A DNA stretch of 64,000 nucleotides from Fibrobacteria bacterium (GCA_050294405.1 JBNKOC010000012.1:463425-527424); one strand, 5' to 3'. Positions 21,903 through 51,167 are shown, counted from the first letter of the stretch. Notes: generated from the sequence alone by a model not told the origin. Numbers and translations: made by a program.

Positions 21903-21936
21903 TTGATTAATCAAATTTAACTAAGGATGCTGTAAA

Positions 21937-23879: not shown

Positions 23880-23895
23880 ATTGTTATAAATAGGA

Positions 23896-24627
23896 ATGGG
23901 AATGACAGATATAATTTTAAGTGAAAGACTAAAACCAAATCAAACCTGGAGTTGGGTAGTAGAAAAAGGACTGAGTCTTCGGGTTACAGATGTTTCTGGA
24001 GATGGCAACCTTTCTATGTTGGTGTTTAACAACGATAATGTGTTGGAAAAATACAATATGCCCGATACTTTAAAGGCTCAGCACACGGCTCATTTAACTA
24101 AAGGCCATTGCATTTACAGTGATATGGGCCGTGTCTTGTTTTCAATTACAGAAGATTCTGTAGGATGGCACGATACAATTTGCGGGGTTTTAAATAATGC
24201 GCAAACGGAAAAAAAATACGGGCCAAGCTCCTATCAGGAACTCCGCAACGACTACCATAGAAGTGGTCGCCAAAATTTGTTGGTTGAAATGGGAAAGAAT
24301 GGCCTTAATAAAAAAGATTTTGGCCCATGCTTAAATTTGTTTAGCAAAGTTTGGGTAGATGAAAAAGGTGGGATGAATTTCTCCGAGCACAATTCAAAAG
24401 CAGGGTCCCAAATTATCCTCAAAGCAGAAATGAATTGTCTTATGGTGGTTTCCAACACGCCTCACCCTCTAAACCCATCCCAAAAATGGGAAGCAGGCGA
24501 AATAATATTGGAAATTTTTAAATCTGAAAATGAGCTAGACAGTGAAATTTGCAGAACCCATTGTCCTGAAAATGAGAGGGGCTTTTTAAATAATCAAAGG
24601 TACTTCAGCACAAAGGTTCAACTATGA
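23896..24627 (+). CDS. urea carboxylase-associated protein, DUF1989 family, first paralogue
   Basis: ~240-aa protein immediately upstream of urea carboxylase. Position and size match the conserved pair of DUF1989 genes found in urea amidolyase loci. Call made from established synteny and sequence-family resemblance. Confidence 0.55.
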
Positions 24628-25283
24628 CAACATTGAATTACATGGAAAGTTCATTAGAAGAAAAAAACGCAATTTATAACGAAATCGTTCCAGCCGGGGA
24701 AGGTTGGAAACATATTGTAAAAAAAGGGCAGGTAATAAGAATTGTGGATTTAGAAGGTAACCAGGCCGCAGATACCTTGTTTTATAATGCACACGACCCC
24801 TCCGAACGTTATAGTTCTGTAGATACTATCAGGGAACAAAAAAATATTTACCTTACCACCGGGACCCAGCTAGTCAGCAGCGAGGGAAATCCTATGCTAA
24901 CTATAGTAGCGGATACCTGCGGAAGACATGATACATTAGGAGGAGCCTGCGCGGCTGAGTCGAATACGGTTCGATATTCACTGGATAAAAAACATATGCA
25001 CGCCTGCCGGGATAGTTTTTTGTGGGTGATCATGAATTGGCAGGATGGACTAGGGAAAAGGGATATAACCAGTAATATTAATTTTTTTATGAATGTTCCT
25101 GTGACCCCAGAGGGAGGATTAACATTTGAAGACGGAGTTTCAAACCCGCTCAAATATGTGGAACTCAGGGCGGAAATGGATGTGATGGCAGTGGTTTCAA
25201 ACTGCCCTCAATTAAATAATCCATGTAATGCATACAATCCAACTCCTGTAAAAATGGTTATTTGGGATTCAATTTCCGTATGA
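24624..25283 (+). CDS. urea carboxylase-associated protein, DUF1989 family, second paralogue
   Basis: Paralogous to the previous gene and overlaps its stop by 4 nt. Shared motifs (...[15 protein letters not shown] / ...[14 protein letters not shown]). Confidence 0.55.
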
Positions 25284-25291
25284 GTTTATAA

Positions 25292-28200: not shown

Positions 28201-28927
28201 CACCCCTTTGGATCCCCGGCACCGCTTTGTCACCACAAAATATAACCCTGCCAGAACCTGGACTTTGGAAAATGTAGTCGGAATTGGCGGCGCTTATATG
28301 TGCATATATGGAATGGAAGGCCCTGGAGGCTATCAGTTATTTGGCCGAACTTGCCAGGTTTGGAATAGCTATTGCCAAACAGATAGTTTTAAAGATGGAT
28401 TGCCCTGGTTGCTAAGGCTGTTTGATCAAATACGCTTCTATCCCGTAAGTGAAAATGAATTGCAGGAGTTTAGAAAAGATTTTTTATCAGGAAAAATTAA
28501 TGTTCAAATTGAAAAGACTAAGCTCAATTTAGGGGAGTATAAACAATTTTTAAACAGAGAGCAGGAATCCATTCAGGAATTTCAAACTTCCCAGAGAAAA
28601 GCCTTTCAGGAGGAAAGGGAGCAATGGGAAAAGGCTGGGTTGATGAAGTTATCCGAAGAGATATCCGATACCCAGATGTCTGAATTGGGAAGTGAATTGG
28701 GAGAAGGGCAAAAAGCGGTTTCATCAAATATGCCGGGAAATATTTGGAAAATCCTCGTTGAGGAGGGAAAACAAATTGAGGAAAATGAAACTGTCATGAT
28801 ATTAGAAAGTATGAAAATGGAGTTTCCAATTAAGTCTGAATATAGCGGCGTAATAAAAAGGATATTTGCCGAAGAAGGCCAGATTATTGAAGCTGGACAG
28901 ATGTTATGTGTACTTGAAGAAAAATAA
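25292..28927 (+). CDS. urea carboxylase (biotin carboxylase + carboxyltransferase/allophanate-hydrolase-subunit-like + biotinyl carrier domains)
   Basis: 1211 aa. N-terminal biotin carboxylase (KVLIANRGEIACRIIKT; ATP-grasp GGGGIGMR). Central AHS1/AHS2-like domains. C-terminal biotinyl domain with the E(S/A)MKME attachment motif (ILESMKMEFPI). Confidence 0.9.
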   Translation: MDKLFSKVLIANRGEIACRIIKTLKKMGIKSAVVYSDADRNSLPTQLADEAIHIGNSPSHESYLDFNKIISVAKSISAEAIHPGYGFLSENVEFAKACEINEICFIGPTPSQLKDFGLKHVSKEIAKKANVPLIPGTGILTELSEAIESADFIGYPVMLKSSAGGGGIGMRLCHNNFELEESWEKVLHLSKTHFGSAEVFLEKYIEKGRHIEVQIFGDGNGKIITLGTRDCSVQRRNQKVIEEAPAPNLDVDIEKNIVASAQSLAEFVKYKSAGTVEFIYDITSSRHYFLEVNTRLQVEHGVTEEVYSVDLVEWMVRQAAGPNFLNSQKIPEPDGHAMEFRWYAENPLKNFMPCAGKITRLKIPEEIRCDSWVQEGQEVSTFYDPLLAKLISKGKNRQEAILRLKSALEKSELQGLYSNKEYVSSILSHPDFIEANVHTQWANTHHWKSNVIEVLEGGAQTTIQDFPGRLGYWEVGVPPSGPMDNLAFQLGNSLLKNNSDAAGLEITLKGPSLKLHSSCEFCLTGSQLNAFLEKADGTKLELQMYTSYHANSGDILNSGSVIGPGMRAYILFKNGLNVFPFLGSCSTFTLGQFGGLDGKILKPGDMLPIIPTKEHKTFVSESMPKNLQPEITNDWKIGCMIGPHSTSEFFLQEDIQKILEAKWKVHFNSNRTGIRLIGPKPTWARKDGGEAGLHPSNIHDNAYAIGTMDFTGDMPVLLGPDGPSLGGFVCPLTCIQSEVWKLGQLKPGDSVQFYLVGGAEANSQLKSQNAYITNFLNNLPSAISLYKPENTLPSPILKEYVNKDGLPITIRQAGDSYMLLEIGELHLDLEYRFRIQWIWNELKNRSIEGITDLTPGIRSLQIHYDSFLLPQEKIVAIISELETNTPPVEDMTVESRVVHLPLSWNDEAIHKIIDKYIKTVRSDAPWCPDNIEFIRRVNGMPDVESVKNAIFDASYLVMGLGDVYLGAPVATPLDPRHRFVTTKYNPARTWTLENVVGIGGAYMCIYGMEGPGGYQLFGRTCQVWNSYCQTDSFKDGLPWLLRLFDQIRFYPVSENELQEFRKDFLSGKINVQIEKTKLNLGEYKQFLNREQESIQEFQTSQRKAFQEEREQWEKAGLMKLSEEISDTQMSELGSELGEGQKAVSSNMPGNIWKILVEEGKQIEENETVMILESMKMEFPIKSEYSGVIKRIFAEEGQIIEAGQMLCVLEEK

Positions 28928-28938
28928 AGGAAACATGG

Positions 28939-30804
28939 ATGTATACCTATGATGATTTGACTCCTGTTCTTTCCTTAGCTGATTTAAAATCCTATTACCG
29001 TTTTAATGGGCGAATTGAGTACATATTAGACGGAATTCATAAGCGCTATAAAAAATTAGACGATCCCGCTATTTTTATTAAGTTACTCAGCAAAGAAGAA
29101 ACATTAAGGTTATTTAGCGAGTTCCATGGGCACAGGAGTAAAGAAGAACAAAAAAAGCTCCCCCTATACGGAGTTCCTTTTGCTGTTAAGGATAACATAG
29201 ATGTAAAAGGCATTCCTACCACGGCAGCTTGCCCCTCTTTTTCTTATATTCCCCAAAAACACGCCGTATCCGTGGAAAAATTACTTAAGGCTGGTGCATT
29301 GTTGGTAGGTAAAACCAACATGGACCAATTTGCCACAGGTTTAGTTGGTGTTCGCTCTCCCTTTGGCATACCTAAAAATCCTTTCAACCCTGAATATATT
29401 CCTGGCGGGTCAAGTTCAGGTTCGGCTGTAGCCGTTTCTAATGCAATTTGCTGTTTTAGCCTTGGCACAGATACCGCAGGATCCGGCAGGGTTCCGGCAA
29501 GTTTTAATAATATAATAGGGCTAAAACCACCTATTAAAATGGTTTCCAATCAAGGCGTGGTTCCTGCAGTTGCCTCCCTGGACTGTGTTAGCGTCTTTGG
29601 ATTATCTGTTTATGATGTATCTGAAGTTTTGAAAATCATTTCCGAACAAGATTTAGAAGACATTCTGGATCCTGAATACCAAAAGGGTTTTCATGAAGAT
29701 TTAGATTTTTTTAATAAAATCGAATTTATTAATCAGGGAGCTCAAAAATTTAGGTTAGGGGTTCCAGGGGATAAATACATTGAATCTTTGGAAGACCCGA
29801 AAAACAAAAAGAGCTACCAATTAGCCGTTAGGCGATTTGAAAGCCTGGGGTGGGAAATTGTTCCTCTGGACCTGACATTTTTAAATAACTGCGCCAAACA
29901 ACTTTATGAAGGCCCCTGGGTTGCGGAGCGATATAGTGCGGTTGGCGAATTTATTGAATCTAAACCGGATGGTTTGGATGCCACCGTTGAAAAAATAATT
30001 AAAGCGGCAGGCAGTATTAGAGCCCATGAATTTTCAAAGGCTATACATCAAAATTTTGAGGATCTAAAATACATGGATTCAGAGTGGAAAAAAATGGATG
30101 CCTTTATTTTGCCTACTACCCCTAGTATTTACAAAATTGAAGAAGTTAAAAAGAGACCTGTTGAGTTGAATAGTCAATTGGGAACTTTCACAAATTTTGC
30201 AAACTTACTCCAAACCTCGGCCATATCCCTACCTGCGGGACACCAGAGGGATGATATGCCAACTAGTATTACTTTGTTTACCCGTAAGACCCGTTTGAAC
30301 TGGATGTTGAAATGGGCCGATGATTTTTTTAAAAATGAAAAACTAATGTGTGGAAAGCAAAATCCGCTTAACTCCACCAATAGCCCAAATGTTTCCTCTC
30401 CTAAAAATGGGACCGTGCATCTGGCGGTGGTAGGGGCTCATTTAAAGGGTCAGCCATTACATTGGCAAATTGAAAAATGTAAAGGTAGATTTGTGGAAAC
30501 GGCCCAAACGGAAAGCTCCTATGAGTTGTTTGAAATAACCAATTCCATTCCTCCCAAGCCTGCTCTTCGTTATGTGGGACGAAATCATGGTAAATCCTAT
30601 TCCATAGAAATTTATTCTCTTCCTTATTTCGGTTTAGGCCAATTTATGGAATGGATTCCAGCTCCGTTGGGAATTGGGACTATTTTTCTGGAGTCCGGTG
30701 AATCGGTTAAAGGGTTTATTTGCGAACCGGTGGGTTTTGAGGATTCCAAGAATATTTCTAGGTACAAAGGATGGAAAGCTTATCTTCGGACAAAGAAAAG
30801 TTAA
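28939..30804 (+). CDS. allophanate hydrolase (amidase-signature family, AtzF-like)
   Basis: Amidase signature (GGSSSGSAVAVSNAICCFSLGTDTAGSGRVPA). Catalytic K in VPFAVKDNIDV. 621 aa with the C-terminal AtzF extension. Immediately downstream of urea carboxylase. Confidence 0.85.
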   Translation: MYTYDDLTPVLSLADLKSYYRFNGRIEYILDGIHKRYKKLDDPAIFIKLLSKEETLRLFSEFHGHRSKEEQKKLPLYGVPFAVKDNIDVKGIPTTAACPSFSYIPQKHAVSVEKLLKAGALLVGKTNMDQFATGLVGVRSPFGIPKNPFNPEYIPGGSSSGSAVAVSNAICCFSLGTDTAGSGRVPASFNNIIGLKPPIKMVSNQGVVPAVASLDCVSVFGLSVYDVSEVLKIISEQDLEDILDPEYQKGFHEDLDFFNKIEFINQGAQKFRLGVPGDKYIESLEDPKNKKSYQLAVRRFESLGWEIVPLDLTFLNNCAKQLYEGPWVAERYSAVGEFIESKPDGLDATVEKIIKAAGSIRAHEFSKAIHQNFEDLKYMDSEWKKMDAFILPTTPSIYKIEEVKKRPVELNSQLGTFTNFANLLQTSAISLPAGHQRDDMPTSITLFTRKTRLNWMLKWADDFFKNEKLMCGKQNPLNSTNSPNVSSPKNGTVHLAVVGAHLKGQPLHWQIEKCKGRFVETAQTESSYELFEITNSIPPKPALRYVGRNHGKSYSIEIYSLPYFGLGQFMEWIPAPLGIGTIFLESGESVKGFICEPVGFEDSKNISRYKGWKAYLRTKKS

Positions 30805-30912: not shown

Positions 30913-32394
30913 TTGCGCTGTTTTATAAATATGGATCCAGTTTTTGATACCTACGAAATCGGTCAATCCTATGACGAGTATTTCGAAGAAGATAAAAAAA
31001 TTAAAAACCATTTATACCCCCTGGTAAATCGCCTTGCAAAGTTAGGGAAAACTGAAATCCTCCGACGCCAAACTGCAGCCGAATCCTTGTTGTTAAATCT
31101 TGGGGTAACCTTTAATGTTACTGGGGATAGCAGCGGACCTGAACGCATATTTCCTATGGATATTTTGCCCCGCCTGATTGAATTAAATAAGTGGAAAAAC
31201 ATTGAAAAAGGTTTGCGGCAAAGAACTTATGCCTTAAACGAATTTATTCAGGATATTTATAATAATCAAAACATACTAAAAGACAGGATTATCCCTCCCG
31301 AAGTTATCTATACATCTCCTGGATATAAAAACCAGTGCAGAGGTGTGACTCCTCCCGGCAAAACCTGGATTCATGTCGGGGGAATGGATATGGTTTCCGA
31401 TGAAAAAGGCAATGTTTATGTGCTTGAGGATAATTTGCGTTGCCCTTCCGGAGTATCTTATGTATTGGAAAACCGGCAGGTGATGAAAAGGACTCTCCCG
31501 CAGGTTTTTGAAGAAATGAATCCTCTTCCGGTAGAAGATTACCCCATACAACTATTAGAAACATTAAGGAGTACAGCTCCAAATACTTCTACAGATCCAT
31601 GCCTGGCTGTTTTAACTCCTGGAATTTACAACTCCGCCTACTTTGAGCATAGTTTTTTGGCGCAACAAATGGGAGTTGAGCTGGTAACCGGAGATGACCT
31701 GTTTGTTGAAAATAAATTTTTGTTTATGCGCACCACACGTGGGCCCAAGCGCATAGATGTATTGTACCGTCGCATAGACGATGATTTTTTAGATCCAAGA
31801 GTTTTTCGACCCGACTCAATGCTGGGAGTACCGGGGATAATGGAGTGTTTTACTTCAGGAAACCTCACTTTGGCAAACGCTCCGGGAACTGGGATTGCCG
31901 ATGACAAAGTGATTTATGCATACATACCTGAAATCATTAAATACTATTTGGGCGAAGATCAGATTTTACCGAATGTTCCCACTTATTTATGTCAAAACCC
32001 TTCGGATTACAAGTATGTATTGGAAAACATGGATAAACTGGTGATAAAATCAGCAAATGAATCTGGAGGATATGGAGTGCTTATTGGTCCCCATGCTTCT
32101 AAAGAAGAATTGGCGAAATGGAAGACCCGTGTTCAATCTGATCCAAGAAATTATCTGGCTCAGGTAAAACTGAATTTAAGTATGGCCCCGTGCATAATCG
32201 GGGAGAATTTTGAACCACGCCACATTGATTTGCGTCCCTTTATCTTATTTGGCAAAGAAATTTTTATTCTGCCTGGGGGGCTGACCCGTGTGGCCCTGCG
32301 AAAAGGCTCCTTAATTGTAAACTCTTCTCAAGGTGGTGGTAGTAAAGATACCTGGGTAGTGGAACATTTGCCCACGGAGGAAAACGATGCTTAG
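30913..32394 (+). CDS. circularly permuted ATP-grasp (type 2, DUF404/DUF407) amidoligase
   Basis: 493 aa. Clear paralogue of the N-terminal half of the 38498-41077 protein (VLEDNLRCPSGVSYVLENR vs VIKDRTQAPSGMGYALENR; LANAPGTGIADDKVIYAYIPEIIKYYLGE vs IVNPIGSRILENSGLNPFMPALCKYFLDE). Conserved neighbourhood with alpha-E, Anbu and transglutaminase genes. Confidence 0.7.
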   Translation: MRCFINMDPVFDTYEIGQSYDEYFEEDKKIKNHLYPLVNRLAKLGKTEILRRQTAAESLLLNLGVTFNVTGDSSGPERIFPMDILPRLIELNKWKNIEKGLRQRTYALNEFIQDIYNNQNILKDRIIPPEVIYTSPGYKNQCRGVTPPGKTWIHVGGMDMVSDEKGNVYVLEDNLRCPSGVSYVLENRQVMKRTLPQVFEEMNPLPVEDYPIQLLETLRSTAPNTSTDPCLAVLTPGIYNSAYFEHSFLAQQMGVELVTGDDLFVENKFLFMRTTRGPKRIDVLYRRIDDDFLDPRVFRPDSMLGVPGIMECFTSGNLTLANAPGTGIADDKVIYAYIPEIIKYYLGEDQILPNVPTYLCQNPSDYKYVLENMDKLVIKSANESGGYGVLIGPHASKEELAKWKTRVQSDPRNYLAQVKLNLSMAPCIIGENFEPRHIDLRPFILFGKEIFILPGGLTRVALRKGSLIVNSSQGGGSKDTWVVEHLPTEENDA

Positions 32395-33394
32395 CCGCGT
32401 GGCGGATTCAATTTATTGGATGAGCAGATACATCGAAAGGGCTGAGAATGTGGCCCGCTTTATTGGAGTTAATTTGTCATTAAACATGGATACGCCTCTG
32501 GTTGTTAAAGAACAATGGGAGCCCTTGTTGCATGCAACTGGAGATTTGGAGTCTTTTATTGAAAAATTTAAGGATTACGACTCTGAAGGCAGCAAGTTCC
32601 ATCCAAATGAACATAAAACAAATGTTTTAAATTTTTTAACCTTCGATTTTCAAAATTCCAATAGCATTTATTCCTGTATAGCCAAGGCTCGCGAAAATGC
32701 CCGTTTGATAAGGGGATACATAAGCACAGAAATGTGGGAGCATATTAATAAGCTTTACCATTTTATAAATAACAAGCAAACCGAAATGAAAGCGCAATCC
32801 GACCCCATTAATTTTTTTATTGAATTGAGGATGTCTATATATACCCTAATAGGAATGACGGATGCTACCTTTTGCCGGGACGATGGCTGGAATTTCCAAC
32901 AGCTTGGCACTTATTTGGAAAGAGCGGATAAAACGACGCGCATTTTAGATGTTAAATATTTTATTTTACTGCCCAAAGTAGGCCATGTTGGTAGTGTTAT
33001 CGAAGATATTTTGTGGGCAGCTCTTTTGCAATCCGTAAGCGGATTTCAAACATTTAAGCAAAAATATCATAAATTGACCCCCGATAGTGTTGTTGAATTT
33101 TTGTTATTGGATAGAGAATTTCCCCGTTCAGTCTTGTTCTGTTTAAAACAGGCCGAAAGCAGCTTGTTCAAAATTTCGGGTACAAGTCCGGGGTATTTTT
33201 CAAATTCTGCGGAGCAGAAATTGGCCAGGCTTAGAAATGAATTAGAATTTAGCAGCGTTGAAGAAATAATTATTCGAGGGCTGCATGAATACTTGGAAAG
33301 TCTCCAAAAACGCATATATGAAATCGGACAGGATATTTTTAGCTTTTTCTTCAAATATCCCCAAGAAGATTTTGCATATGGCGCAAGCCAATAA
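32387..33394 (+). CDS. alpha-E domain (DUF403) protein
   Basis: All-alpha 335-aa protein. N-terminal motif SRVADSIYWMSRYIERAENVARF is paralogous to FWAGRYIGRTLSLARF in the C-terminal half of the 38498-41077 fusion protein. Overlaps the upstream ATP-grasp gene by 8 nt. Confidence 0.65.
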   Translation: MLSRVADSIYWMSRYIERAENVARFIGVNLSLNMDTPLVVKEQWEPLLHATGDLESFIEKFKDYDSEGSKFHPNEHKTNVLNFLTFDFQNSNSIYSCIAKARENARLIRGYISTEMWEHINKLYHFINNKQTEMKAQSDPINFFIELRMSIYTLIGMTDATFCRDDGWNFQQLGTYLERADKTTRILDVKYFILLPKVGHVGSVIEDILWAALLQSVSGFQTFKQKYHKLTPDSVVEFLLLDREFPRSVLFCLKQAESSLFKISGTSPGYFSNSAEQKLARLRNELEFSSVEEIIIRGLHEYLESLQKRIYEIGQDIFSFFFKYPQEDFAYGASQ

Positions 33395-33410
33395 TTTTTA
33401 GTAAATTTAC

Positions 33411-34193
33411 TTGGGTTTATTTTCAAATTTAAGATTTGGAGGCATTATTACTTTTTGTTTGGGAATTAAAGTAAAAGATGGTTTAGTTGCTTTATCTGAT
33501 ACAAGAATTACATCAGGGGCTGAATGTATTACAGCCCGGAAACTTACCATTTTTCAAGGAAAAAATTATTTCTTTTTTGTAATGACTTCGGGTTTACGCT
33601 CTTTAAGAGATAAATCATTAATTTATTTTGACGAGTATTTTAGTAAACATAAAAATAGCCATGATCAACTTTACAAAGTTGTGAATACGATGGCTTCTCA
33701 AATACGAAGAGTTTATAAAGAAGATGCAGAAGCTCTAAAGGAAGCAGGGCTGCAATTTAATATTCATATGATTATCGGCGGTCAGATGTCCAAAGATGCG
33801 GACCATCAATTGTTTTTTATCTACCCCCAGGGAAATTGGGTCGCCGTTGGAGTTGGGACTCCTTATCAAATAATTGGAGCAACTCCATATGGTAAGCCGG
33901 TATTAGACAGAACCCTAAAATATGAGGACAGCATTCCCTTTGCTTTAAAAGTGGGTTGCTTGGCATTTGATTCCACCCGAATTTCTGCTGCAGATGTTGA
34001 TTTTCCTTTAGATGTTGTTCTTTATGCGAAAAACTCCTACGAATGTGTGGAACATAGATACGAGAAGGACGATTTGAAAGAGGTATCAGAATGGTGGCAG
34101 GGGAAACTCAGAGAATCTGTAGATTCCTTTCCAGGAAGTTGGTTCAACGATATTTACAGGGAACTGCCAAAGCCTAAACGCATGAAAAAATAA
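33411..34193 (+). CDS. Anbu-type proteasome-like (Ntn-hydrolase, beta-subunit homologue) peptidase
   Basis: Motif T-FCLGIKVKDGLVALSDTRITSG matches the Thr1...D17...R/K pattern of proteasome beta/HslV/Anbu N-termini. ~260 aa. Sits in the Anbu-characteristic neighbourhood (CP-ATP-grasp, alpha-E, transglutaminase). The ORF starts at a TTG, with a 13-aa leader before the putative catalytic Thr. Confidence 0.6.
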   Translation: MGLFSNLRFGGIITFCLGIKVKDGLVALSDTRITSGAECITARKLTIFQGKNYFFFVMTSGLRSLRDKSLIYFDEYFSKHKNSHDQLYKVVNTMASQIRRVYKEDAEALKEAGLQFNIHMIIGGQMSKDADHQLFFIYPQGNWVAVGVGTPYQIIGATPYGKPVLDRTLKYEDSIPFALKVGCLAFDSTRISAADVDFPLDVVLYAKNSYECVEHRYEKDDLKEVSEWWQGKLRESVDSFPGSWFNDIYRELPKPKRMKK

Positions 34194-34205
34194 GGATTAT
34201 GTAAC

Positions 34206-35018
34206 ATGAAATATAAAATCAATCATGTTACAGAATATTATTATAATAATTTGGTCGTTTTAGGCCCCCATGTAATCCGTCTTATTCCCAAATCCACGGC
34301 AATACAGCATTTAATAAATTGCGAAATAGAAGTTTTTCCAGAGCCTGCGGGGAAATCAGAAATTGTGGACTTTTTCGGGAACAGATGTTTGTCTGTTTGG
34401 TTTACCGGAAAAACTGAAAAATTAACCATTAGCGCAATATCCGAAGTTGAGGCGATAGCTTTTAACCCTTTTCAATTTCTTTTAGATTCCAATTGGCTGA
34501 ACCTTCCCTTGGGAAAACCTGTGATAAGATCAAATAATACCGGAATACTCCGGGAAATGGAAAAAGATTTTGGGGTGGAGTTTACCGGAAATACGGTTCA
34601 TGTATTGCAGTTATTATGCAACATCATTTACCAAAAAATATCTCAAATTAAAAGGTTGGAAGGCGTTCCACATGATCCAATGGTTACTTGGCATAAAAAG
34701 GAAGGGGCTTGCAGAGACTTAGCTGTATTATTCATGGAATGTTGCTCATGTCTGGGTATACCTTCCAGATTTGTCAGTGGATATTTACATCATCGAAGCG
34801 AAGAGGAACAGCACATGCATGCCTGGGTTGAAATATACCTGGAGGGAGCGGGCTGGAGGGCGATGGACCCCACAAACGGCTTATTTGTTGAAAATGAACA
34901 TATTTCAGTGGCATCAGCTCCCGAATCTGAATTAGCGAGCCCAATTACCGGCAGTTATGGCGGAAAAGCTAATTTGGAGAAGATGGATATTTCTATTGAA
35001 ATGATAAAGACACGCTGA
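34206..35018 (+). CDS. transglutaminase-like cysteine-protease-fold protein (Bact_transglu_N + transglutaminase core)
   Basis: Catalytic Cys GACRDLAVLFMECCSCLGIPSRFVSGYL. His in HAWVEIYLEGAGWRAMDPTNG, followed by the Asp. 270 aa. Confidence 0.75.
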   Translation: MKYKINHVTEYYYNNLVVLGPHVIRLIPKSTAIQHLINCEIEVFPEPAGKSEIVDFFGNRCLSVWFTGKTEKLTISAISEVEAIAFNPFQFLLDSNWLNLPLGKPVIRSNNTGILREMEKDFGVEFTGNTVHVLQLLCNIIYQKISQIKRLEGVPHDPMVTWHKKEGACRDLAVLFMECCSCLGIPSRFVSGYLHHRSEEEQHMHAWVEIYLEGAGWRAMDPTNGLFVENEHISVASAPESELASPITGSYGGKANLEKMDISIEMIKTR

Positions 35019-35156
35019 TAATTCGATGTATAGGCTTTTGAGCCTGACAATACTGCTGTAGGGATGTATCTTTATAATACCTGTTAAGGGTTTCCCCAGG
35101 CTCAACGGAATGCTTCCAGTTAAGAAAAAGCGGGAACTTTCAAAGGAGAATATGTT

Positions 35157-38100
35157 ATGACGCTAAAGGTTGTTATATCCCATAAAACATTTTATCAGTT
35201 TGACAGATTGGTGACCATTTCTCCCCATGTATTCAGGCTCAGGCCCGCACCACATTCCCGCACGCCGATATATGCCTATTCAATGAAGATTAAACCTGAA
35301 AAACAATTTTTTAATTGGCAACAAGATCCATTTGGAAATTACCAGGCCAGATTGGTTTTCCCTGAAAAATCCAGGGAGATGAGTATTGAGGTAGAAATCA
35401 TCGCCGATTTAACAGCTATAAATCCCTTTGATTTCTTTGTTGAAGAATCTGCCAAGTACTTCCCTTTTAAATATGACAGATTAACAAAAAGAGAATTAAA
35501 CCCCTATTTGAAAACTTCCCGAAAAGGCAAACTTTTTTCTGAATGGCTAAATAGCATTGATAGGTCTAAGAAAATAACTATAGATTTTTTAATTGATATT
35601 AATCAAAAAATTAATAACATGTTAAAGTACAATATTCGCATGCAGCCTGGAGTGCAAAGCTGTGAAGTTACGCTGAGAAAAAAATCTGGATCTTGTAGAG
35701 ATTTTGCCTGGCTGCTTGTGCAAACACTGCGGCATTTGGGGTTTGGTGCCAGGTTTGTTTCCGGTTATTTAGTGCAGCTTAAAGCCGATGTTAAATCCTT
35801 AGATGGTCCATCCGGTCCGGAAGAAGATTTTACAGATTTACATGCTTGGGCAGAAGTTTATGTTCCGGGTGCTGGTTGGATAGGTTTAGATTCCACATCC
35901 GGACTACTTGCAGGAGAGGGGCATATTCCACTTGCATGCACTCCATCTTTTGAAGGAGCAGCTCCGGTTACCGGGACAACTGATATTTGTAAAACAGTGT
36001 TTTCATATGAAAACACTGTTAAAAGAATCTTTGAATCGCCAAGAGTTACAAAACCTTACACAGATAATCAGTGGTTGAAAATCAACCAGTTAGGGGAAAA
36101 AGTCGAAAATGAACTCCAAAAAAATGATGTTAGATTAACCATGGGGGGAGAACCTACTTTTGTTTCTATTGATGATATGGAGTCCGCTCAATGGAATACG
36201 GAAGCTGATGGAGAAGAAAAAAGAAAACGGGCAATTGATTTATCGAAAAAATTATTGAAACGTTTTGGAAAAGGAGGGGTACTGCACCACCCGCAAGGCA
36301 AATGGTATCCAGGTGAAATATTACCGCGCTGGGAAATTGCCTTGTATTGGAGAAAAGACGGAAATCCAATTTGGAAAAATCCAAATTTATTAGGTACACC
36401 AAATTCAAATAATCAAAATATAAACATAAGCCTGGCAAAAAACTTTTTGCAAAAGTTATGCGATAAGCTATCTGTGGATCAAAAATATTTGATTCCCGGT
36501 TACGAAGATGCCTTTTATTTTTATTGGGAAAAAGAGAAATTACCTACAGATTTAGAACCAGAAAATATTGATTTAAAATCACCGCCAGTAATGCAAAAAC
36601 TGACAGAACTACTAAACAAGGGCTTAAGCGAACCTGCCGGATTTGCGCTTCCATTACATTATGGGAAACAGGGCTGGGATTCTAGCGATTGGAAATTAAA
36701 AAGAAAACGCTTGGTTTTAATTCCAGGAAATTCCCCTATGGGTCTTAGGCTTCCCCTTGAATCTTTAATGTTAAAACCTGAGCGGGAGCCGGGTCCGGTT
36801 ATGCCTAAAGATAATTTCTCTTCATTAGGGAAGTTGCCGGAATCATCTCAGATAATAGAGCGAAGAAATAAAACTGAAAAATTTTCCACTTTTGATGCAT
36901 CATCGGGAAATTTAATTCGAACAGCTCTTTGCATAGAACCTAGGGCAGGTTCTCTTTACGTTTTTTTGCCCCCTCTGGAAAGTTCAGAGGCTTTTTTGGA
37001 TTTGGTTTGTTGTATTGAAGCCGTTTCCGCTCAGTTGAATGTGCAAATAATATTGGAAGGTTACTCCCCTCCCGAGGACCACCGAATTCAAAAGTTAAAG
37101 GTAACTCCAGATCCTGGGGTTATTGAAGTAAATATACATCCTTCGCAGAGCTGGAGTGAATTGTGTGAAAACACCTTTGCTTTATATAAAGAAGCTGAAT
37201 TATCACGGCTGGGAACTCAAAAGTTTATGCTGGATGGAAAGCATACTGGGACTGGTGGGGGCAATCATGTGACCTTAGGCGGGGCCACTCCTTCTGATAG
37301 TCCTTTATTACGAAGGCCCGATTTACTTCGAAGTTTAATAACATATTGGCAACATCACCCCGGACTGTCTTATTTATTTTCCGGCGCCTTTATTGGGCCA
37401 ACTAGTCAGGCTCCAAGAGTGGACGAGGGAAGAGCTGAGAACTTGTATGAGTTGGAAATTGCCTTTAGCCAAATTCCATCTTCAAAAGAGGTGCCCTTTT
37501 GGCTCACGGATAGATTGTTTCGCCACTTACTAACGGACATTACTGGAAATACCCATAGGTCGGAATTTTGTATTGATAAATTATACAGTCCTGACTCCAG
37601 CTCAGGAAGGTTGGGAATATTGGAACTAAGAGCCTTTGATATGCCCCCCCATGCCAGAATGAGCCTTACCCAAATGCTTTTGGTAAGAACCCTTGTTGTT
37701 TGGTTTTGGCAAAAGCCTTATAAGCATAAGCTCATTCGATGGGGAACGGAATTACACGACAGGTATTTGATGGAGCACTATGTCAGAGAAGATATGAACG
37801 ACATTGTGGAACAGCTGAATAGGGAAGGCTATCCTTTGGAATTGGACTGGTTTAACCCGTTTTTTGAATTTAGGTTCCCCCTATACGGCATTGTACATAT
37901 AAATAGGGTAGAATTGGAGTTAAGGGCTGCAATTGAACCTTGGAATGTGCTGGGCGAAGAAATGACAGGCAGAGGAACCTCAAGATATGTAGATTCATCT
38001 GTGGAAAGGTTGCAGGTAAAATTGAATAATTTCATAGAGGATAGGTATATACTAACTTGTAATGGAGTTCGGATTCCGCTTAGCTCTACAGGAAAGGCTG

Positions 38101-38501
38101 GAGAATACGTGGCCAGCATCCGATATAAAGCCTGGCAGCCATGGTCCGCCCTGCATCCAACCATTGGAGTAGATACCCCCTTGATATTTGATATTTTGGA
38201 TAGCTGGAATAGCCGATCATTGGGAGGCTGCACTTACCATGTTTCTCATCCAGGGGGAAGGAGTTATGAAACATTTCCTGTAAATAGTTTTGAGGCTGAG
38301 TCCAGGAGAATAAGCCGGTTTTGGGATATTGGCCATTCCCAGGGTGAAATAACTCCCCTTCAACATTCCAGTAATGTTGTTAGTCTGGGAAGGGGTGTTA
38401 GCATCAAGAGCCCATCGGCAGGATTTATATATCAGGAGCCTCCAATTAACCTTGAGTTTCCACATACGCTTGATTTAAGGAAAAGCCATAAAGTAAGATG
38501 A
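35157..38501 (+). CDS. large transglutaminase-family protein (N-terminal transglutaminase-like domain + ~800-aa DUF2126-like C-terminal region)
   Basis: 1114 aa. N-terminal ~270 aa paralogous to the two small TGase-like proteins (GSCRDFAWLLVQTLRHLGFGARFVSGYL; HAWAEVYVPGAGWIGLDSTSG). The long C-terminal extension has no other recognisable motif. Architecture recalled as that of mycobacterial Rv2566-type proteins. Confidence 0.7.
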   Translation: MTLKVVISHKTFYQFDRLVTISPHVFRLRPAPHSRTPIYAYSMKIKPEKQFFNWQQDPFGNYQARLVFPEKSREMSIEVEIIADLTAINPFDFFVEESAKYFPFKYDRLTKRELNPYLKTSRKGKLFSEWLNSIDRSKKITIDFLIDINQKINNMLKYNIRMQPGVQSCEVTLRKKSGSCRDFAWLLVQTLRHLGFGARFVSGYLVQLKADVKSLDGPSGPEEDFTDLHAWAEVYVPGAGWIGLDSTSGLLAGEGHIPLACTPSFEGAAPVTGTTDICKTVFSYENTVKRIFESPRVTKPYTDNQWLKINQLGEKVENELQKNDVRLTMGGEPTFVSIDDMESAQWNTEADGEEKRKRAIDLSKKLLKRFGKGGVLHHPQGKWYPGEILPRWEIALYWRKDGNPIWKNPNLLGTPNSNNQNINISLAKNFLQKLCDKLSVDQKYLIPGYEDAFYFYWEKEKLPTDLEPENIDLKSPPVMQKLTELLNKGLSEPAGFALPLHYGKQGWDSSDWKLKRKRLVLIPGNSPMGLRLPLESLMLKPEREPGPVMPKDNFSSLGKLPESSQIIERRNKTEKFSTFDASSGNLIRTALCIEPRAGSLYVFLPPLESSEAFLDLVCCIEAVSAQLNVQIILEGYSPPEDHRIQKLKVTPDPGVIEVNIHPSQSWSELCENTFALYKEAELSRLGTQKFMLDGKHTGTGGGNHVTLGGATPSDSPLLRRPDLLRSLITYWQHHPGLSYLFSGAFIGPTSQAPRVDEGRAENLYELEIAFSQIPSSKEVPFWLTDRLFRHLLTDITGNTHRSEFCIDKLYSPDSSSGRLGILELRAFDMPPHARMSLTQMLLVRTLVVWFWQKPYKHKLIRWGTELHDRYLMEHYVREDMNDIVEQLNREGYPLELDWFNPFFEFRFPLYGIVHINRVELELRAAIEPWNVLGEEMTGRGTSRYVDSSVERLQVKLNNFIEDRYILTCNGVRIPLSSTGKAGEYVASIRYKAWQPWSALHPTIGVDTPLIFDILDSWNSRSLGGCTYHVSHPGGRSYETFPVNSFEAESRRISRFWDIGHSQGEITPLQHSSNVVSLGRGVSIKSPSAGFIYQEPPINLEFPHTLDLRKSHKVR

Positions 38502-41077
38502 GCACCACCCCTTTAAATTCCAAGTCTATGTTTTCTGATTATTTCAAGGAAAATGGTTATGATGAATTGGGAAGTTCCATTGGGAATATAAAAGCCGTAT
38601 GGAAACCACTAATAAAAAATTTACAAAATTTAGGGCTGGATGGACTGGCTGAAAAACAAAATCACCTAAGCTGGCAACTTTCAGAAAATGGAATAACCTA
38701 TAATGTATATGGCGATCCAAAGGGAATGAACAGGCCGTGGAATTTAGATGTGACCCCTCAACTAATCCATGAATCTGAATGGAAATTACTTGAAAAAGGA
38801 TTAAAACAAAGAAGTGAACTGCTAAATCTTATTTTTAAGGATATATACGGAAAAAGAAACTTGTTGAAGTCGGGGATAGTTCCCCCTGAGGTTATTTATA
38901 GTCATGGAGGTTTTTTACGGGTTTGTGATCAGGTTTCTTACTCTTGTGAAAAACCTCTTTATGTGCATGGCTGTGATATGGCCAGGGGACCGGATGGAAA
39001 TATGTGGGTAATAAAAGACAGGACCCAGGCGCCATCTGGAATGGGGTACGCGTTGGAAAATAGGCTAAGTCTGGATAGGGTAGTACCTGAGCTGAGTTTA
39101 AATATGTATGTCAGGCAAATTGCAAATTTTTATGATAATTTTAAAAATCTGCTATTGGAATCTCATTCTCAAAATAACGAGAATCCCAATATCGTTGTTA
39201 TGACGCCCGGTCCGCACAATGAAACCTACTTTGAACACTCTTATTTAGCTGAATATTTTGGTTTTTCTCTGGTTCAGGGAAGAGATTTAATTGTGCGGGA
39301 TGGCTATTTGTGGATGAAAAATTTGAATGGCCTTAAAAAAGTCGATGTCGTTTTAAGAAGGGTTGATGACATATATGCAGATCCCCTTGAATTAAAAGAG
39401 GACTCACAACTCGGAGTTGCAGGATTACTGGATGTTATACGTAAAAATAATGTGACTATAGTTAATCCCATAGGAAGTCGGATCCTTGAAAACAGTGGGC
39501 TAAATCCGTTTATGCCGGCATTATGCAAGTACTTTTTAGATGAAGAGCTAATAATTCCCCAAATCGCAACCTGGTGGTGCGGGCAGGAGCTGGAAAAAAA
39601 TTATGTAATGGAAAATCTTTCCCAATTGATTGTAAAAAGAATAGATCACGGGTCGGGCCATCCAATATACTACGGTTTTGACTTAACGAAATCTGAACTA
39701 ATCCAGTTGAGAAATCAAATTCTTGCAAAGCCATATCTTTTTGTGGCCCAGGAAAAGGTAAGTTTCTCCACCTCACCTACATTTACCGGGAATGGATTTG
39801 AGCCGCGTTATAGCAGTTGGCGCACTTTTTCAATTGGAACAAAAGATGGCTACAAAGTCATGCCTGGCGGTTTGGTGAGGGTTTCGCCCCAACATGGAAA
39901 TATATTAGTGTCTAATCAAAAAGGTGGCACTAGCAAGGATATTTGGATTATTGCAGACTCCCCTGAACCTAAATCCAAGATTTTTAAAAAGCCCATAAGT
40001 TCCTCTATGGCGTTGCCTGGCTTGAATGAACTTCCAAGTTTAACTGCTGAAAATTTGTTCTGGGCAGGCAGATACATTGGAAGAACATTGAGTTTGGCGC
40101 GATTCACCAGAATGGTTGTTAAAAAGTTATTGTACAATCCCTATGAAGGGGGTAACAAATTTAAACCGCAAATTAATCATTTGTTCCAAACCTTAACAGA
40201 TTTAACATGGTCCCATCCAGGTTTTTATAAGCCTGAAAATTTAAATACAAAAGCCGCAGCCTATGAAGAATTAAATTCAATTTTATTTGATGTTAATAGG
40301 AACGGAAGCCTTTCGCAGACTATTTCCATGTTTACAAATACCTACTATTCAATTCGATATTTATGGTCTTCGGATATGTGGAGGCTGTTTGATCGAATTG
40401 AAATAATATGGTCTGATATTCAAAACAATGCTTTTAGGGATTTGCAGGATATGTCTCAAGCGTTGGATCAGCTAATTACAAGAATTATTGCATTTATGGG
40501 TCTGGTTGAAAAAAGCATTTTGATTAATCAGGGTTTATTGCTTTATTTTATAGGGATGCAATTGGAACAAGCCATGCAAAATGTAACTAAGTCCTATTGT
40601 ATACTAACCCCTTCTTTTGAAGACGCAGTGGAATATGAGCTCCTTGAGTCCCTATTAATAAGCCATGAAAGTCTTAACATATATAGATATAGTTACAGGA
40701 CCTATATCAACCCCCTAAATGTGATTGATTTAATTTTACTTCATAAAGACTATCCTAATTCTTTAATGTTTCAATTATCCAGAATGCAAAAAGATTTGAA
40801 AAAGATGCCTAAAGAAGGAGGAGAATCTAATTTAATGCCCCACGAGCACGGAATTTTTGAAGCATACTCCCTTTTAAGGCTGGCAAACCCCCAGAATTTG
40901 GCTGAGCAAACATTGTTGAACGGAAATCGGGCTATGTTAGGTGATTTGTTGTTGAAAATTAAACAAAACTTAATGGATACCAATCTGGAATTTAGCAATC
41001 GATATTTTAGCCATAGCTATTCTCAAAATCAACTTCTCCAACGCAACCCTAGCCAAAGCCTTGATTTACTCAGTTGA
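38498..41077 (+). CDS. fusion protein: circularly permuted ATP-grasp (N-terminal ~480 aa) + alpha-E domain (C-terminal ~330 aa)
   Basis: 859 aa uninterrupted ORF. N-half paralogous to 30913-32394 and C-half paralogous to 32387-33394 (motifs above). ATGA overlap with the upstream gene. Confidence 0.7.
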   Translation: MSTTPLNSKSMFSDYFKENGYDELGSSIGNIKAVWKPLIKNLQNLGLDGLAEKQNHLSWQLSENGITYNVYGDPKGMNRPWNLDVTPQLIHESEWKLLEKGLKQRSELLNLIFKDIYGKRNLLKSGIVPPEVIYSHGGFLRVCDQVSYSCEKPLYVHGCDMARGPDGNMWVIKDRTQAPSGMGYALENRLSLDRVVPELSLNMYVRQIANFYDNFKNLLLESHSQNNENPNIVVMTPGPHNETYFEHSYLAEYFGFSLVQGRDLIVRDGYLWMKNLNGLKKVDVVLRRVDDIYADPLELKEDSQLGVAGLLDVIRKNNVTIVNPIGSRILENSGLNPFMPALCKYFLDEELIIPQIATWWCGQELEKNYVMENLSQLIVKRIDHGSGHPIYYGFDLTKSELIQLRNQILAKPYLFVAQEKVSFSTSPTFTGNGFEPRYSSWRTFSIGTKDGYKVMPGGLVRVSPQHGNILVSNQKGGTSKDIWIIADSPEPKSKIFKKPISSSMALPGLNELPSLTAENLFWAGRYIGRTLSLARFTRMVVKKLLYNPYEGGNKFKPQINHLFQTLTDLTWSHPGFYKPENLNTKAAAYEELNSILFDVNRNGSLSQTISMFTNTYYSIRYLWSSDMWRLFDRIEIIWSDIQNNAFRDLQDMSQALDQLITRIIAFMGLVEKSILINQGLLLYFIGMQLEQAMQNVTKSYCILTPSFEDAVEYELLESLLISHESLNIYRYSYRTYINPLNVIDLILLHKDYPNSLMFQLSRMQKDLKKMPKEGGESNLMPHEHGIFEAYSLLRLANPQNLAEQTLLNGNRAMLGDLLLKIKQNLMDTNLEFSNRYFSHSYSQNQLLQRNPSQSLDLLS

Positions 41078-41954
41078 ACATATAACCGAATATAAATATT
41101 CGGATTATGTAAGTTATTGCCATAATATCGCTATGTTAAAACCCCGGAGTTATAGTGGTAACGAATTAATTGACTTTACCCTTGAAATTGATCCGATTCC
41201 GGCTCAAATCAGCGAAGGGTTGGATTTTTTTGGAAATAATTTAACCCGTTTTTCCATACACGAAATGCATCAAATGTTGCGAGTTCGCTCTCACAGCTTG
41301 ATTTCCAGGGGAGTGTTGCAATATGAACTAGGTGAAGGAAGAAAAATGCCTTCTCCTATTACCGTTGCCCAAACCAGAGAAGAATTAAAAAAAATTAATC
41401 CAGACTACATTTTGGCCAGGCAATATATAATTGAGTCTCAATTGATTAATAATTATCCGCAATCTATTTTAGAATATTCCAGTAAATTTTTCGGACCAGA
41501 AACACCCTTGTTTGAAGCGTCCTTGGAATTAACATCTGGCATATATAACGATTTTGAATTTGTTCCTGGGTTTACCACTATTACCACTCCTTTAAATGAA
41601 GTAATGGATGGGAAAAAAGGCGTATGCCAGGATTTTGCGCATATAGCCATTGCCTGTCTTCGTGCTCAGGGATTAGCCGCCCGTTATGTTAGTGGTTATA
41701 TAGAAACAATTGCTCCTCCAGGCCAGCCTAAACTTACAGGGGTAGATGCCTCTCATGCCTGGTTTGCAGTTTTTATTCCTGGAATGGGCTGGGTTGATTT
41801 TGACCCAACCAATAACCAACTTCCTGGAGAAAATTATGTGACAATGGCTTGGGGAAGGGACTACTACGATGTGCCCCCTTTAAAAGGAGTAATCTATACA
41901 AATGGAGCGAACAGTTTAAAGGTCTCCGTCCATATGGAACAGGTTAAATCATAA
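41061..41954 (+). CDS. transglutaminase-like cysteine-protease-fold protein (third paralogue)
   Basis: GVCQDFAHIAIACLRAQGLAARYVSGYI (Cys). HAWFAVFIPGMGWVDFDPTNN (His/Asp). 297 aa. Overlaps the upstream gene by 17 nt. Confidence 0.75.
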   Translation: MIYSVEHITEYKYSDYVSYCHNIAMLKPRSYSGNELIDFTLEIDPIPAQISEGLDFFGNNLTRFSIHEMHQMLRVRSHSLISRGVLQYELGEGRKMPSPITVAQTREELKKINPDYILARQYIIESQLINNYPQSILEYSSKFFGPETPLFEASLELTSGIYNDFEFVPGFTTITTPLNEVMDGKKGVCQDFAHIAIACLRAQGLAARYVSGYIETIAPPGQPKLTGVDASHAWFAVFIPGMGWVDFDPTNNQLPGENYVTMAWGRDYYDVPPLKGVIYTNGANSLKVSVHMEQVKS

Positions 41955-47860: not shown

Positions 47861-48138
47861 CCTATTGACAATTGAGTGATGAAGTAAGGGTTTCACAGGT
47901 TGAAACCCTTATTAGTAGTGTTTTCCCATTCATATTTTGCGCGTCAAAAAATGGCAAGACTTCGCCTTTAATACATGAACAGCAGTAATAGGCATTTTAT
48001 TTGTGTGTAGAGTTAAATTAATAACTCTTGGAGTCTCCATGGCCATACCGCATTATTGCTCAACTGTCAGGTGAATACGATCACTGTACACCAATAAGAA
48101 TTATTGGAATTAATTTTCGGTTAGATTTTTTTGATTCC

Positions 48139-51162: not shown

Positions 51163-51167
51163 GTATT

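Follow-up and report, generated by a model that had tools for sequence, protein, structure and literature searches.

The closest described system to the first part of our locus is the Anbu operon (ATP-grasp COG2308, alpha-E COG2307, transglutaminase-like COG1305 and Anbu; Valas & Bourne 2008; Fuchs et al. 2017; Piasecka et al. 2018), which combines the same four families as genes 1–4 described below; in both cases the genes lie on one strand, are tightly spaced and keep their catalytic residues intact. Anbu forms an open-ring or helical dodecameric assembly, and the ATP-grasp protein of Y. bercovieri releases phosphate from ATP. Purified Anbu proteins showed neither peptidase nor amidase activity and formed no stable complexes with their operon partners (PMC6376114), and Anbu operons have been reported to be induced under nitrogen limitation in P. 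putida (PMC3235984; PMC6376114). The second known system is the Rv2566-type locus, whose type example, Rv2566, is a giant in which a transglutaminase-like (TGase) domain is fused to a carboxylate-amine ligase (PMC2588565). Its architecture and gene order are those of genes 5–7, which follow directly after the Anbu operon here; a likeness to mycobacterial Rv2566/Rv2567/Rv2569c themselves is predicted from the description in PMC2588565. Both modules are thus already known from comparative genomics, and only their side-by-side placement is unusual.

The window analysed is a stretch of 64,000 nt from a Fibrobacteria bacterium (GCA_050294405.1 JBNKOC010000012.1:463425-527424), of which the part at 30,913–41,954 is shown. 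Seven co-directional genes on the + strand span 30931–41954, and their ORFs were confirmed at the coordinates of the original prediction. Module A consists of a stand-alone class A circularly permuted (CP) ATP-grasp ligase (gene 1, 30931..32394), a stand-alone class A alpha-E protein (gene 2, 32387..33394), Anbu, a proteasome beta-type Ntn Thr hydrolase (gene 3, 33447..34193), and a small TGase-like cysteine hydrolase (gene 4, 34206..35018). Module B consists of a 1114-aa giant with an N-terminal TGase-like domain and DUF2126, a predicted carboxylate-amine ligase (gene 5, 35157..38501), an 859-aa fusion of a class-B CP ATP-grasp with a class-B alpha-E (gene 6, 38498..41077) and another small TGase-like cysteine hydrolase (gene 7, 41061..41954). 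The succession of an Anbu-type module and a TGase-DUF2126/fusion/TGase module within one window is therefore as originally predicted. The genes had also been described as mostly overlapping, which is true of just three of the six junctions (8 nt between genes 1 and 2, 4 nt between genes 5 and 6, and 17 nt between genes 6 and 7); the remaining gaps are 52 (or 16, from the upstream start of gene 3), 12 and 138 nt. For gene 1, the mechanically called ORF begins at TTG 30913, and ATG 30931, which is also the start in the NCBI annotation, is probably the right one. For gene 7, TTG 41061 is better than NCBI's 41133, because it regains the full Bact_transglu_N domain (Pfam profile positions 1–79 of 80), from which the NCBI start cuts ∼24 residues.

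All seven family assignments of the original prediction hold, six of the seven with scores far above the Pfam gathering scores and Anbu through solved structures. Gene 1 matches CP_ATPgrasp_2 (E 5e-160, 533 bits) and CP_ATPgrasp_1 (E 6e-137, 457 bits), and the ATP-grasp part of gene 6 matches CP_ATPgrasp with 470 and 340 bits, above the gathering score. Gene 1 has the fold of the solved family member PDB 3N6X, which it matches over its full length (E 7e-160). The original prediction had named a glutathionylspermidine-synthase-like identity as grounds for rejecting the ATP-grasp assignments, and at the family level no such identity appeared: neither the GSP_synth Pfam model nor genuine GspS/TryS chains matched the window ATP-grasps at E<=10. 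It should be added that 3N6X itself, Methylobacillus flagellatus Mfla_0391, is labelled ‘putative glutathionylspermidine synthase’, which is the depositor's label and not a tested function, and that, among characterised folds, GS/GspS enzymes come nearest. The closest structural relatives that have been characterised, namely glutathione, trypanothione and glutathionylspermidine synthetases, YgiC and Cp1B, are small-molecule or peptide ligases. They share just 10–13% identity with the window ATP-grasps and, unlike them, have neither an alpha-E partner nor TGase or Anbu neighbours.

The alpha-E family is equally clear, with gene 2 covering the full Pfam profile (PF04168, E 1e-94, 318 bits) and the C-terminal half of gene 6 scoring 166 bits, above the gathering score. 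Gene 2 keeps the canonical ‘ER’ motif (RYIER) and gene 6 has RYIGR. RYxER was present in all 63 module-A alpha-E proteins in which the motif was located, and the fusion-class proteins all retain the Arg, but 49 of 59 carry another residue in place of the Glu. A partnership of alpha-E with ATP-grasp is supported by their invariable adjacency and by their fusion in module B, such fusions numbering 59 in 80 DUF2126 loci. Bact_transglu_N and Transglut_core both score above the gathering score in gene 4 (E 1e-21 and 7e-17, respectively), at the N-terminus of gene 5 and in gene 7, and the catalytic triad C169-H205-D221 (gene 4 numbering) is invariant in all three TGase-like domains of the cluster. 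Behind both TGase domains, gene 5 covers DUF2126 at profile positions 1–826 of 826 (1271 bits). Sequence searches, including one with a diverse profile, gave no link between DUF2126 and any solved ligase, and the evidence for its fold comes from a poor predicted model (pLDDT 57).

The Anbu ORF aligns over residues 14–242 with the solved Anbu structures 5LOY, 5NYW, 5NYJ, 5NYF and 5LOX (phmmer, E 1e-32 to 2e-22). Its score against the Pfam Proteasome model (PF00227) is 19.2 bits, under the gathering cutoff of 22.4; this model is insensitive to Anbu, since a precomputed hit is likewise missing from many database entries that are clearly Anbu homologues. The residue that aligns to Thr1 of the solved structures is T14 of the mechanical ORF, which begins at TTG 33411, and Thr1, Asp17 and Lys31 are invariant among 16 homologues, the residues looked for having been Thr1, Asp17 and Lys32/33. 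The DNA before the catalytic Thr1 codon at 33450 reads GGAGG-catt-ATT-ACT, so that the codon directly before Thr1 is ATT rather than ATG, and the TTG 13 codons upstream is also a possible start. Judged from this context, Anbu most likely starts at the non-canonical ATT 33447 rather than at TTG 33411, and in four related loci ATT or ATC must be the Anbu start because of in-frame stops. An N-terminal threonine, as originally predicted for 33411–34193, is thus obtained only with the ATT start or after removal of a 13-residue leader. The protein is 55–75% identical to homologues in the same operon type across dozens of phyla.

The cluster is not a chance arrangement: dozens of unrelated genomes contain module A as a conserved unit, and the same is true of module B. 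Module A is a standard Anbu operon, as the order ATP-grasp, alpha-E, Anbu, TGase was found in most of 80 Anbu loci, and module B is a standard Rv2566-type trio, the order TGase-DUF2126, ATP-grasp/alpha-E, TGase being that of most of 80 DUF2126 loci. In the published enterobacterial Anbu operon, as seen in Klebsiella, Anbu comes last, whereas in the window the TGase is last, as in 52 related loci; the apparent ATT start of Anbu and the second module directly behind also set the window operon apart from the published one. The original prediction expected paralogue pairs for every component, and these exist for ATP-grasp (two copies), alpha-E (two) and TGase (three), while Anbu and DUF2126 are single. 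With identities of 34% between the two ATP-grasps and 24% between the two alpha-E proteins, sequence comparison identifies modules A and B as ancient paralogues and not as a recent duplication. Orthologues in other genomes resemble each copy far more (57/46% and 54/44%) than its paralogue does; for gene 1, the median identity to ATP-grasps from 67 Anbu operons is 57%, and to class B it is 34%.

The configuration was originally called unusually complete, and the survey agrees: among 47 related Anbu loci with 8 kb or more of sequence downstream, no full module B follows Anbu (one of them, L075, carries a lone DUF2126 gene only), and none of the 80 DUF2126 loci has Anbu. This side-by-side layout is peculiar to the lineage of the window. 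Such rarity is also what would be expected if two independent operons, each with a job of its own, had come to lie together without functional meaning, through a rearrangement or because one was acquired laterally. Several observations point in this direction. In the two closest relatives by Anbu (75% and 69% identity), module A stands alone and is followed by unrelated genes, which indicates that the two modules can work apart, and in Azospirillum, Caballeronia, Burkholderia and Ralstonia the Anbu and DUF2126 markers are far apart or on different replicons. Moreover, gene 5 is preceded by the 138-nt gap, which could be the site of its own promoter, and by a Shine–Dalgarno sequence (AAGGAG), and the best matches of module B are all from Bacteroidota, to which the host apparently does not belong, as argued from its Shine–Dalgarno use and a PEP-CTERM protein. 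Scans of the cluster DNA for promoters, terminators and sigma-54 sites were uninformative; no terminator was found in the gap between genes 4 and 5, and neither module shows a compositional anomaly, both of which speak against independent operons. So do the partial versions of the tandem, in which parts of the two modules adjoin repeatedly and in varied order and orientation. Class-A ATP-grasp/alpha-E pairs adjoin module B in an Enterobacter plasmid, in locus L159 and in ∼10 of 80 metagenome loci, and in the A. caldus megaplasmid Anbu adjoins a giant-type TGase-DUF2126. On the plasmid, p1_120063 of Enterobacter roggenkampii (NZ_CP116251.1), a class-A-like ATP-grasp and alpha-E are followed by giant, fusion and TGase in five co-directional, overlapping genes; unlike the window, it has neither Anbu nor a module-A TGase, and its alpha-E is just 33% identical to gene 2. 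Repeated adjacency of this kind is hard to explain without shared function or regulation. Hence we consider a meaningless juxtaposition possible but rather unlikely, and the recurrence of class-A pairs beside module B and of Anbu beside the giant suggests a functional link between the modules.

What is established here is the family of every part, the integrity of the catalytic residues where checked and the deep divergence of the paralogues. Our preferred reading, to which we give a probability of roughly 45%, is that the locus holds two ancient paralogous modules, each combining ATP-dependent amide ligase with thiol or Thr hydrolases. The CP ATP-grasp, with alpha-E as its obligate partner, would activate a carboxylate as acyl-phosphate and couple it to an amine. 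A second ligation, of the kind that glutamine synthetase performs, would come from DUF2126. The resulting amide bonds would be cut or transferred by the TGase-like proteins, with their Cys-His-Asp triads, and by Anbu as a Thr1 hydrolase. The substrates would most likely be small compounds of the gamma-glutamyl, peptide or polyamine type and not proteins, and the whole set would probably be co-expressed with the urea-amidolyase genes upstream under nitrogen scarcity. That the families co-occur is in line with the literature (PMC3235984, PMC5666114, PMC6376114).

The original prediction had instead drawn an analogy with ubiquitin/Pup tagging. In such a system the ligases would put a peptide or amino-acid tag on proteins, the TGase-like proteins would edit the tag and Anbu would degrade the tagged proteins. 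This idea has been proposed before in the literature, and the locus does share with the Pup-proteasome (PafA/Dop, Pup, Mpa, 20S) a proteasome-family hydrolase, since Anbu, whose Thr1/Asp17/Lys triad is intact, is homologous to proteasome beta subunits, and a predicted ligase of the glutamine-synthetase-fold superfamily, since DUF2126 was placed in the ligase superfamily of the Pup ligase PafA (PMC2588565). The locus lacks an alpha subunit, however, and also encodes ATP-grasp ligases and TGase-like hydrolases. No free-standing tag-sized or Pup-like ORF was found on the + strand in the cluster gaps or beside the cluster, and the Rv2566 family likewise has no co-encoded small tag (PMC2588565); an AAA+ unfoldase gene was absent from the cluster and its immediate flanks. 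The open rings of Anbu, for which no peptidase activity was shown, and the small-molecule and peptide chemistry of all characterised structural neighbours of the ATP-grasp count against tagging as well. Furthermore, the Aravind group, who defined the Rv2566 family, predicted peptide/glutathione-like synthesis ‘rather than conjugating proteins’ (PMC2588565). Thus the tagging analogy is not sustained, and we regard protein tagging as improbable.

A further alternative is a biosynthetic cluster whose product, a modified peptide or a secondary metabolite resembling a peptide, would be made by amide assembly without NRPS, for which the E-64 and dapdiamide pathways are examples. The cluster contains no tailoring enzyme, exporter or precursor peptide gene and more hydrolases than a biosynthetic route needs, and the modules are nearly unchanged across many phyla, as housekeeping or stress genes are, unlike variable biosynthetic clusters; such a role is very unlikely. 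Anti-phage defence, for which the one argument is that sets of ligase and protease genes in general sometimes serve defence, is effectively excluded, as none of the seven proteins is matched by a PADLOC model and neither mobile-element nor defence-island neighbours are present within the window.

For the preferred amide-ligase/hydrolase reading, the upstream neighbours are of interest. At 20943..30804, on the same strand and 126 nt from the cluster, lie an ABC transporter, UAAP1, UAAP2, urea carboxylase and allophanate hydrolase, which form a nitrogen-scavenging cluster of the urea-amidolyase type, with NCBIfam equivalog scores of 312 bits for UAAP1 (cutoff 206), 347 for UAAP2 (285), 1699 for urea carboxylase (1304) and 656 for allophanate hydrolase (511). 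This fits the nitrogen-limitation induction of Anbu operons noted above, and the A. caldus cluster sits among glnA, amt, P-II, ntrBC and amidase genes. A nitrogen-gene neighbourhood is not general among related loci: Amt/P-II adjoin 3 of the 80 Anbu loci and none of the 80 DUF2126 loci, and urea carboxylase was beside none of either set. In a more specific version, the urea-amidolyase genes and both modules would form one nitrogen-starvation pathway acting on one small nitrogen-rich amide of the gamma-glutamyl or polyamine-peptide type, which the three ligases would build and the TGase-like proteins and Anbu would dismantle. We think this version a long shot; if it were true, Anbu would be a small-molecule amidase and not a protease, and this would account for the fact that peptidase activity was never found.

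As an uncultured MAG, the window organism is a poor experimental entry point, and cultured, tractable carriers of combined clusters are offered by the Enterobacter roggenkampii plasmid and the A. caldus megaplasmid. The locus sharpens, without answering, the question, standing since 2008, of what the Anbu operon and Rv2566-type loci do, and adds to it a nitrogen-scavenging neighbour consistent with the reported induction. Small-molecule amide chemistry is better supported than protein tagging, and the two modules appear as separate ancient paralogous units that different lineages have repeatedly brought together.

All seven ORFs of the original prediction were present on the forward strand with identical coordinates, and its family assignments were right, six of the seven scoring far over the curated Pfam cutoffs. 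Gene 1 (+) matched CP_ATPgrasp_2/1, gene 2 (+) matched Alpha-E, and genes 4 (+) and 7 (41061–41954, +) each matched Bact_transglu_N plus Transglut_core; gene 5 (+), the giant, carries Bact_transglu_N and Transglut_core with a full-length DUF2126 (1271 bits) C-terminal to them, and gene 6 (+) encodes CP_ATPgrasp and then Alpha-E, with the alpha-E half at 39998–41077. The product of gene 3 scored slightly under the Pfam Proteasome cutoff, and searches against solved Anbu structures gave five matches that covered the whole domain (E 1e-32 to 2e-22). Thr1, Asp17 and Lys31 of Anbu were invariant across 16 homologues, and a Cys-His-Asp triad was found in all three transglutaminase (TGase)-like domains. 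Neighbouring genes overlap at three junctions (8, 4 and 17 nt) and are separated by 52, 12 and 138 nt at the other three. For comparison with the NCBI gene calls, the analysis placed the window in assembly GCA_050293925.1 (contig JBNKNQ010000001.1). The reading of the row as an Anbu-type module (genes 1–4, module A) followed by an Rv2566-type trio (genes 5–7, module B) also holds. A defence system was considered and rejected, as PADLOC returned zero matches for the cluster proteins. A convergent gene for a trypsin-like peptidase (474 aa; 41956–44036, −) ends 2 nt from the stop codon of gene 7 and is followed by an unassigned 218-aa ORF; both are kept in the near-identical contig L002, and neither was seen beside module B elsewhere.

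A recent tandem duplication as the origin of the two modules is ruled out, because the paralogues inside the window are only 24–34% identical (34% for the ATP-grasp domains, 24% for the alpha-E domains and 24–33% between pairs of TGase domains). Each copy has orthologues in other organisms that are much closer than its partner in the window: stand-alone ATP-grasp and alpha-E proteins of Anbu operons have median identities of 57% and 46% to genes 1 and 2, against 34% and 21% to the fusion, and ATP-grasp/alpha-E fusions from elsewhere share 54%/44% identity with gene 6, against 33% with gene 1. The two alpha-E classes also differ in the ‘ER’ motif after which the family is named: RYxER is present in 63 of 63 module-A proteins with a locatable motif, whereas in the fusion class 49 of 59 domains have another residue, usually Gly, in place of the Glu. 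Gene 6 itself reads RYIGR, with Gly in this position, and no domain of either class has lost the Arg. Taken at the level of sequence, modules A and B are two ancient modules. The prediction of paralogue pairs for every component was thus overstated, since it stands for ATP-grasp, alpha-E and TGase, while Anbu and DUF2126 each have no paralogue in the opposite module.

The claim that the configuration is unusually complete was borne out by scans of related loci. When one genome per species was scanned among relatives of the window Anbu (10 kb on each side), the usual locus was a four-gene operon of ATP-grasp, alpha-E, Anbu and TGase, and module B was present in none of the 47 related Anbu loci having at least 8 kb downstream, with a lone DUF2126 gene in a single one (L075). 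In the two loci whose Anbu is nearest to that of the window (75% and 69% identity), only the four-gene operon occurs, and the genes after it are unrelated. Conversely, in a scan of metagenomes anchored on the gene 5 giant, the trio of TGase-DUF2126, fusion and TGase was the norm and Anbu was found in none of the 80 loci. Hence, among the loci scanned, no lineage but that of the window (L001 and the near-identical Logan contig L002) showed all seven genes in exactly this layout. Partial combinations do occur: some 10 of the 80 loci anchored on the giant have an additional stand-alone ATP-grasp/alpha-E pair, in varied orientations, and the pair of L159 truly belongs to class A, the module-A type. 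An Enterobacter roggenkampii plasmid carries ATP-grasp, alpha-E, giant, fusion and TGase as one co-directional overlapping row, the A. caldus megaplasmid carries Anbu, then a giant-type TGase and DUF2126, then ATP-grasp and alpha-E, and in Azospirillum, Caballeronia, Burkholderia and Ralstonia Anbu and DUF2126 are both present and far apart. We read the modules as self-sufficient units with a functional or regulatory affinity, which are fully juxtaposed in the window's lineage.

Anbu loci themselves vary in arrangement. In a Klebsiella plasmid (NZ_CP084831.1, L170), L060 and L071 the operon follows the published order ATP-grasp, alpha-E, TGase, Anbu. The window and 52 related loci place Anbu third and TGase last, after ATP-grasp and alpha-E, and these two arrangements may reflect the two subtypes of Anbu mentioned in the literature. 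Orphan Anbu genes, which lack an ATP-grasp, alpha-E or TGase neighbour, were found in L005 (a Kiritimatiellia MAG), L003, L004, L007, L008, L013 and L169, and their carriers include several of the closest named relatives. The orphan of L005 (9872–10723) lies among ParB, a gene with no assignment, Der GTPase and ribonucleotide reductase, and that of L169, an Azospirillum plasmid, adjoins amidase, dihydropyrimidinase and amidohydrolase genes.

The best matches of module B were all from Bacteroidota (66–69% for the giant). The host is a diderm that uses Shine-Dalgarno sequences and encodes a PEP-CTERM protein; the last two features speak against its being a Bacteroidota, so that module B may plausibly have been acquired laterally. 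Composition gave no sign of such a transfer, as modules A and B resemble the flanks in GC3 and in codon usage. Further downstream, GC content dips to 0.316–0.338 at 48001–52000, against ∼0.40 elsewhere, in a segment that contains a tRNA gene (49342–49415, −), an unassigned 299-aa ORF and the beginning of a gene row for a pilus or secretion system of the PilM/T2SSE type, and this dip may mark an island boundary. Near the window end, a 1605-aa Peptidase_C25 (gingipain-like) protein with an FlgD_ig domain is encoded at 57982–62799 (−).

The start codon of the Anbu gene needed revision. In the mechanical ORF of gene 3 the Anbu alignment starts only at residue 14, and the DNA at 33438–33452 reads as a GGAGG Shine-Dalgarno sequence and then catt-ATT-ACT, where ACT is the codon of Thr1. 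Among 80 related loci the codon immediately 5′ of Thr1 was ATG in 68, GTG in 5, TTG in 1 and ATT or ATC in 3. Four independent lineages (L166, L029, L048 and L006) have an in-frame stop shortly upstream of Thr1, zero canonical start codons between this stop and Thr1, and ATT or ATC abutting the Thr1 codon (start regions at ∼9890–9910 in L166, ∼9985–10003 in L029 and L048, and ∼2455–2472 in L006). A strong Shine-Dalgarno sequence lies 5–6 nt 5′ of the ATT or ATC in L166, L029 and L048, and L006 has only a G-run at ∼7 nt. Altogether, ATT or ATC replaces ATG, GTG or TTG before Thr1 in at least six lineages, and AUU/AUC initiation appears, from these codons, to be used repeatedly by Anbu genes; gene callers either lengthen such ORFs at the 5′ end or choose an internal Met. 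Because the extra peptide implied by a start at TTG 33411 is unconserved in the closest relatives, and because four lineages offer ATT or ATC only, gene 3 most likely starts at ATT 33447, which would give the Met-Thr N-terminus of other Anbu proteins. For gene 7 the predicted TTG at 41061 (17-nt overlap with gene 6) proved the better choice, as it restores a complete Bact_transglu_N domain, whereas the NCBI start at 41133 truncates it by ∼24 residues. Gene 1 probably starts at ATG 30931.

A complete urea-amidolyase-type cluster (20943–30804), comprising an NMT1-type ABC transporter, UAAP1, UAAP2, urea carboxylase and allophanate hydrolase, lies on the same strand 126 nt upstream of gene 1, and the last four proteins all scored over their NCBIfam equivalog cutoffs. 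Clusters of this type can act on guanidine instead of urea. No riboswitch, for guanidine or otherwise, was found before the cluster, an Rfam search over the window returning one tRNA only. The Anbu operon of P. putida is reported to be strongly induced under nitrogen limitation (PMC3235984, PMC6376114), and the A. caldus cluster lies amid glnA, amt, P-II, ntrBC and amidase genes. A nitrogen-gene neighbourhood as a general feature was nevertheless rejected, since Amt/P-II genes adjoin no more than 3 of 80 Anbu loci and are absent beside all 80 DUF2126 loci, and urea carboxylase adjoins none of the related Anbu or DUF2126 loci. Motif scans gave 33 sigma-54 promoter matches against 31 expected, 27 sigma-70 promoter matches against 31.9±5.5 and 18 terminators against 12.3±3.6, all at or near background, and none of these sites fell in the relevant gaps. 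The nitrogen link of the seven-gene cluster is suggestive, not established. The A. caldus locus (ATCC 51756 megaplasmid NZ_CP005987.1, 1–28705; L163) is a nitrogen-control island with two Anbu paralogues, two P-II genes, amt, glnA, ntrB/C and an aliphatic amidase gene; its giant-type TGase and DUF2126 ORFs are apparently split or partly unannotated, its ATP-grasp and alpha-E are class-A-like, and IS elements are interspersed. In the window, a sigma-54-dependent response regulator and a 7TM-type histidine kinase are encoded at 5643–9113 (−), ∼12 kb upstream of the nitrogen cluster.

The original prediction proposed a tagging system analogous to Pup or ubiquitin. This mechanism is less likely, since neither a tag-sized ORF nor an AAA+ partner was found in or beside the cluster, and since PMC2588565, in its section on the Rv2566-type genes, notes the absence of a Pup-like ORF alongside them and predicts glutathione-like peptide synthesis ‘rather than conjugating proteins’. 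Purified Anbu had no peptidase activity, Anbu and its operon partners formed no stable complexes, and the Anbu-operon ATP-grasp released phosphate from ATP (PMC6376114). A literature search found no recent functional papers on these families. The depositor name of 3N6X, a solved CP ATP-grasp structure, is ‘putative glutathionylspermidine synthase’, which is a label only. The proteins of genes 1 and 6 gave zero matches at E≤10 to the GSP_synth model and genuine GspS sequences. The alpha-E fold search returned generic helical bundles and nothing specific. DUF2126 showed no sequence-level link to solved ligases by single sequence, narrow profile or diverse profile, and no cross-matches to other Pfam ligase families, although DUF2126 is a large family of over 5,000 clusters at 50% identity; fold matches of the giant count weakly because its structure model is poor (pLDDT 57).

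The missing tag and AAA+ partner, the published peptide-synthesis prediction, the inactive Anbu and the phosphate release by ATP-grasp together favour amide chemistry on small compounds. Up to three ATP-dependent amide ligations, by two ATP-grasp/alpha-E units and DUF2126, would be offset by four amide hydrolases or transferases, namely the three Cys-His-Asp enzymes and the Thr1 enzyme Anbu, and the substrates may be small gamma-glutamyl, peptide or polyamine-type compounds. In this best account of the cluster, family membership and catalytic residues are observed directly, and the ligation and hydrolysis are inferred from them. The tandem arrangement is rare and specific to this lineage, and comparative genomics had already defined both of its units. 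The window's own organism is uncultured and the component families will not surprise a specialist; the comparison across loci provides tractable carriers and a testable small-molecule hypothesis.
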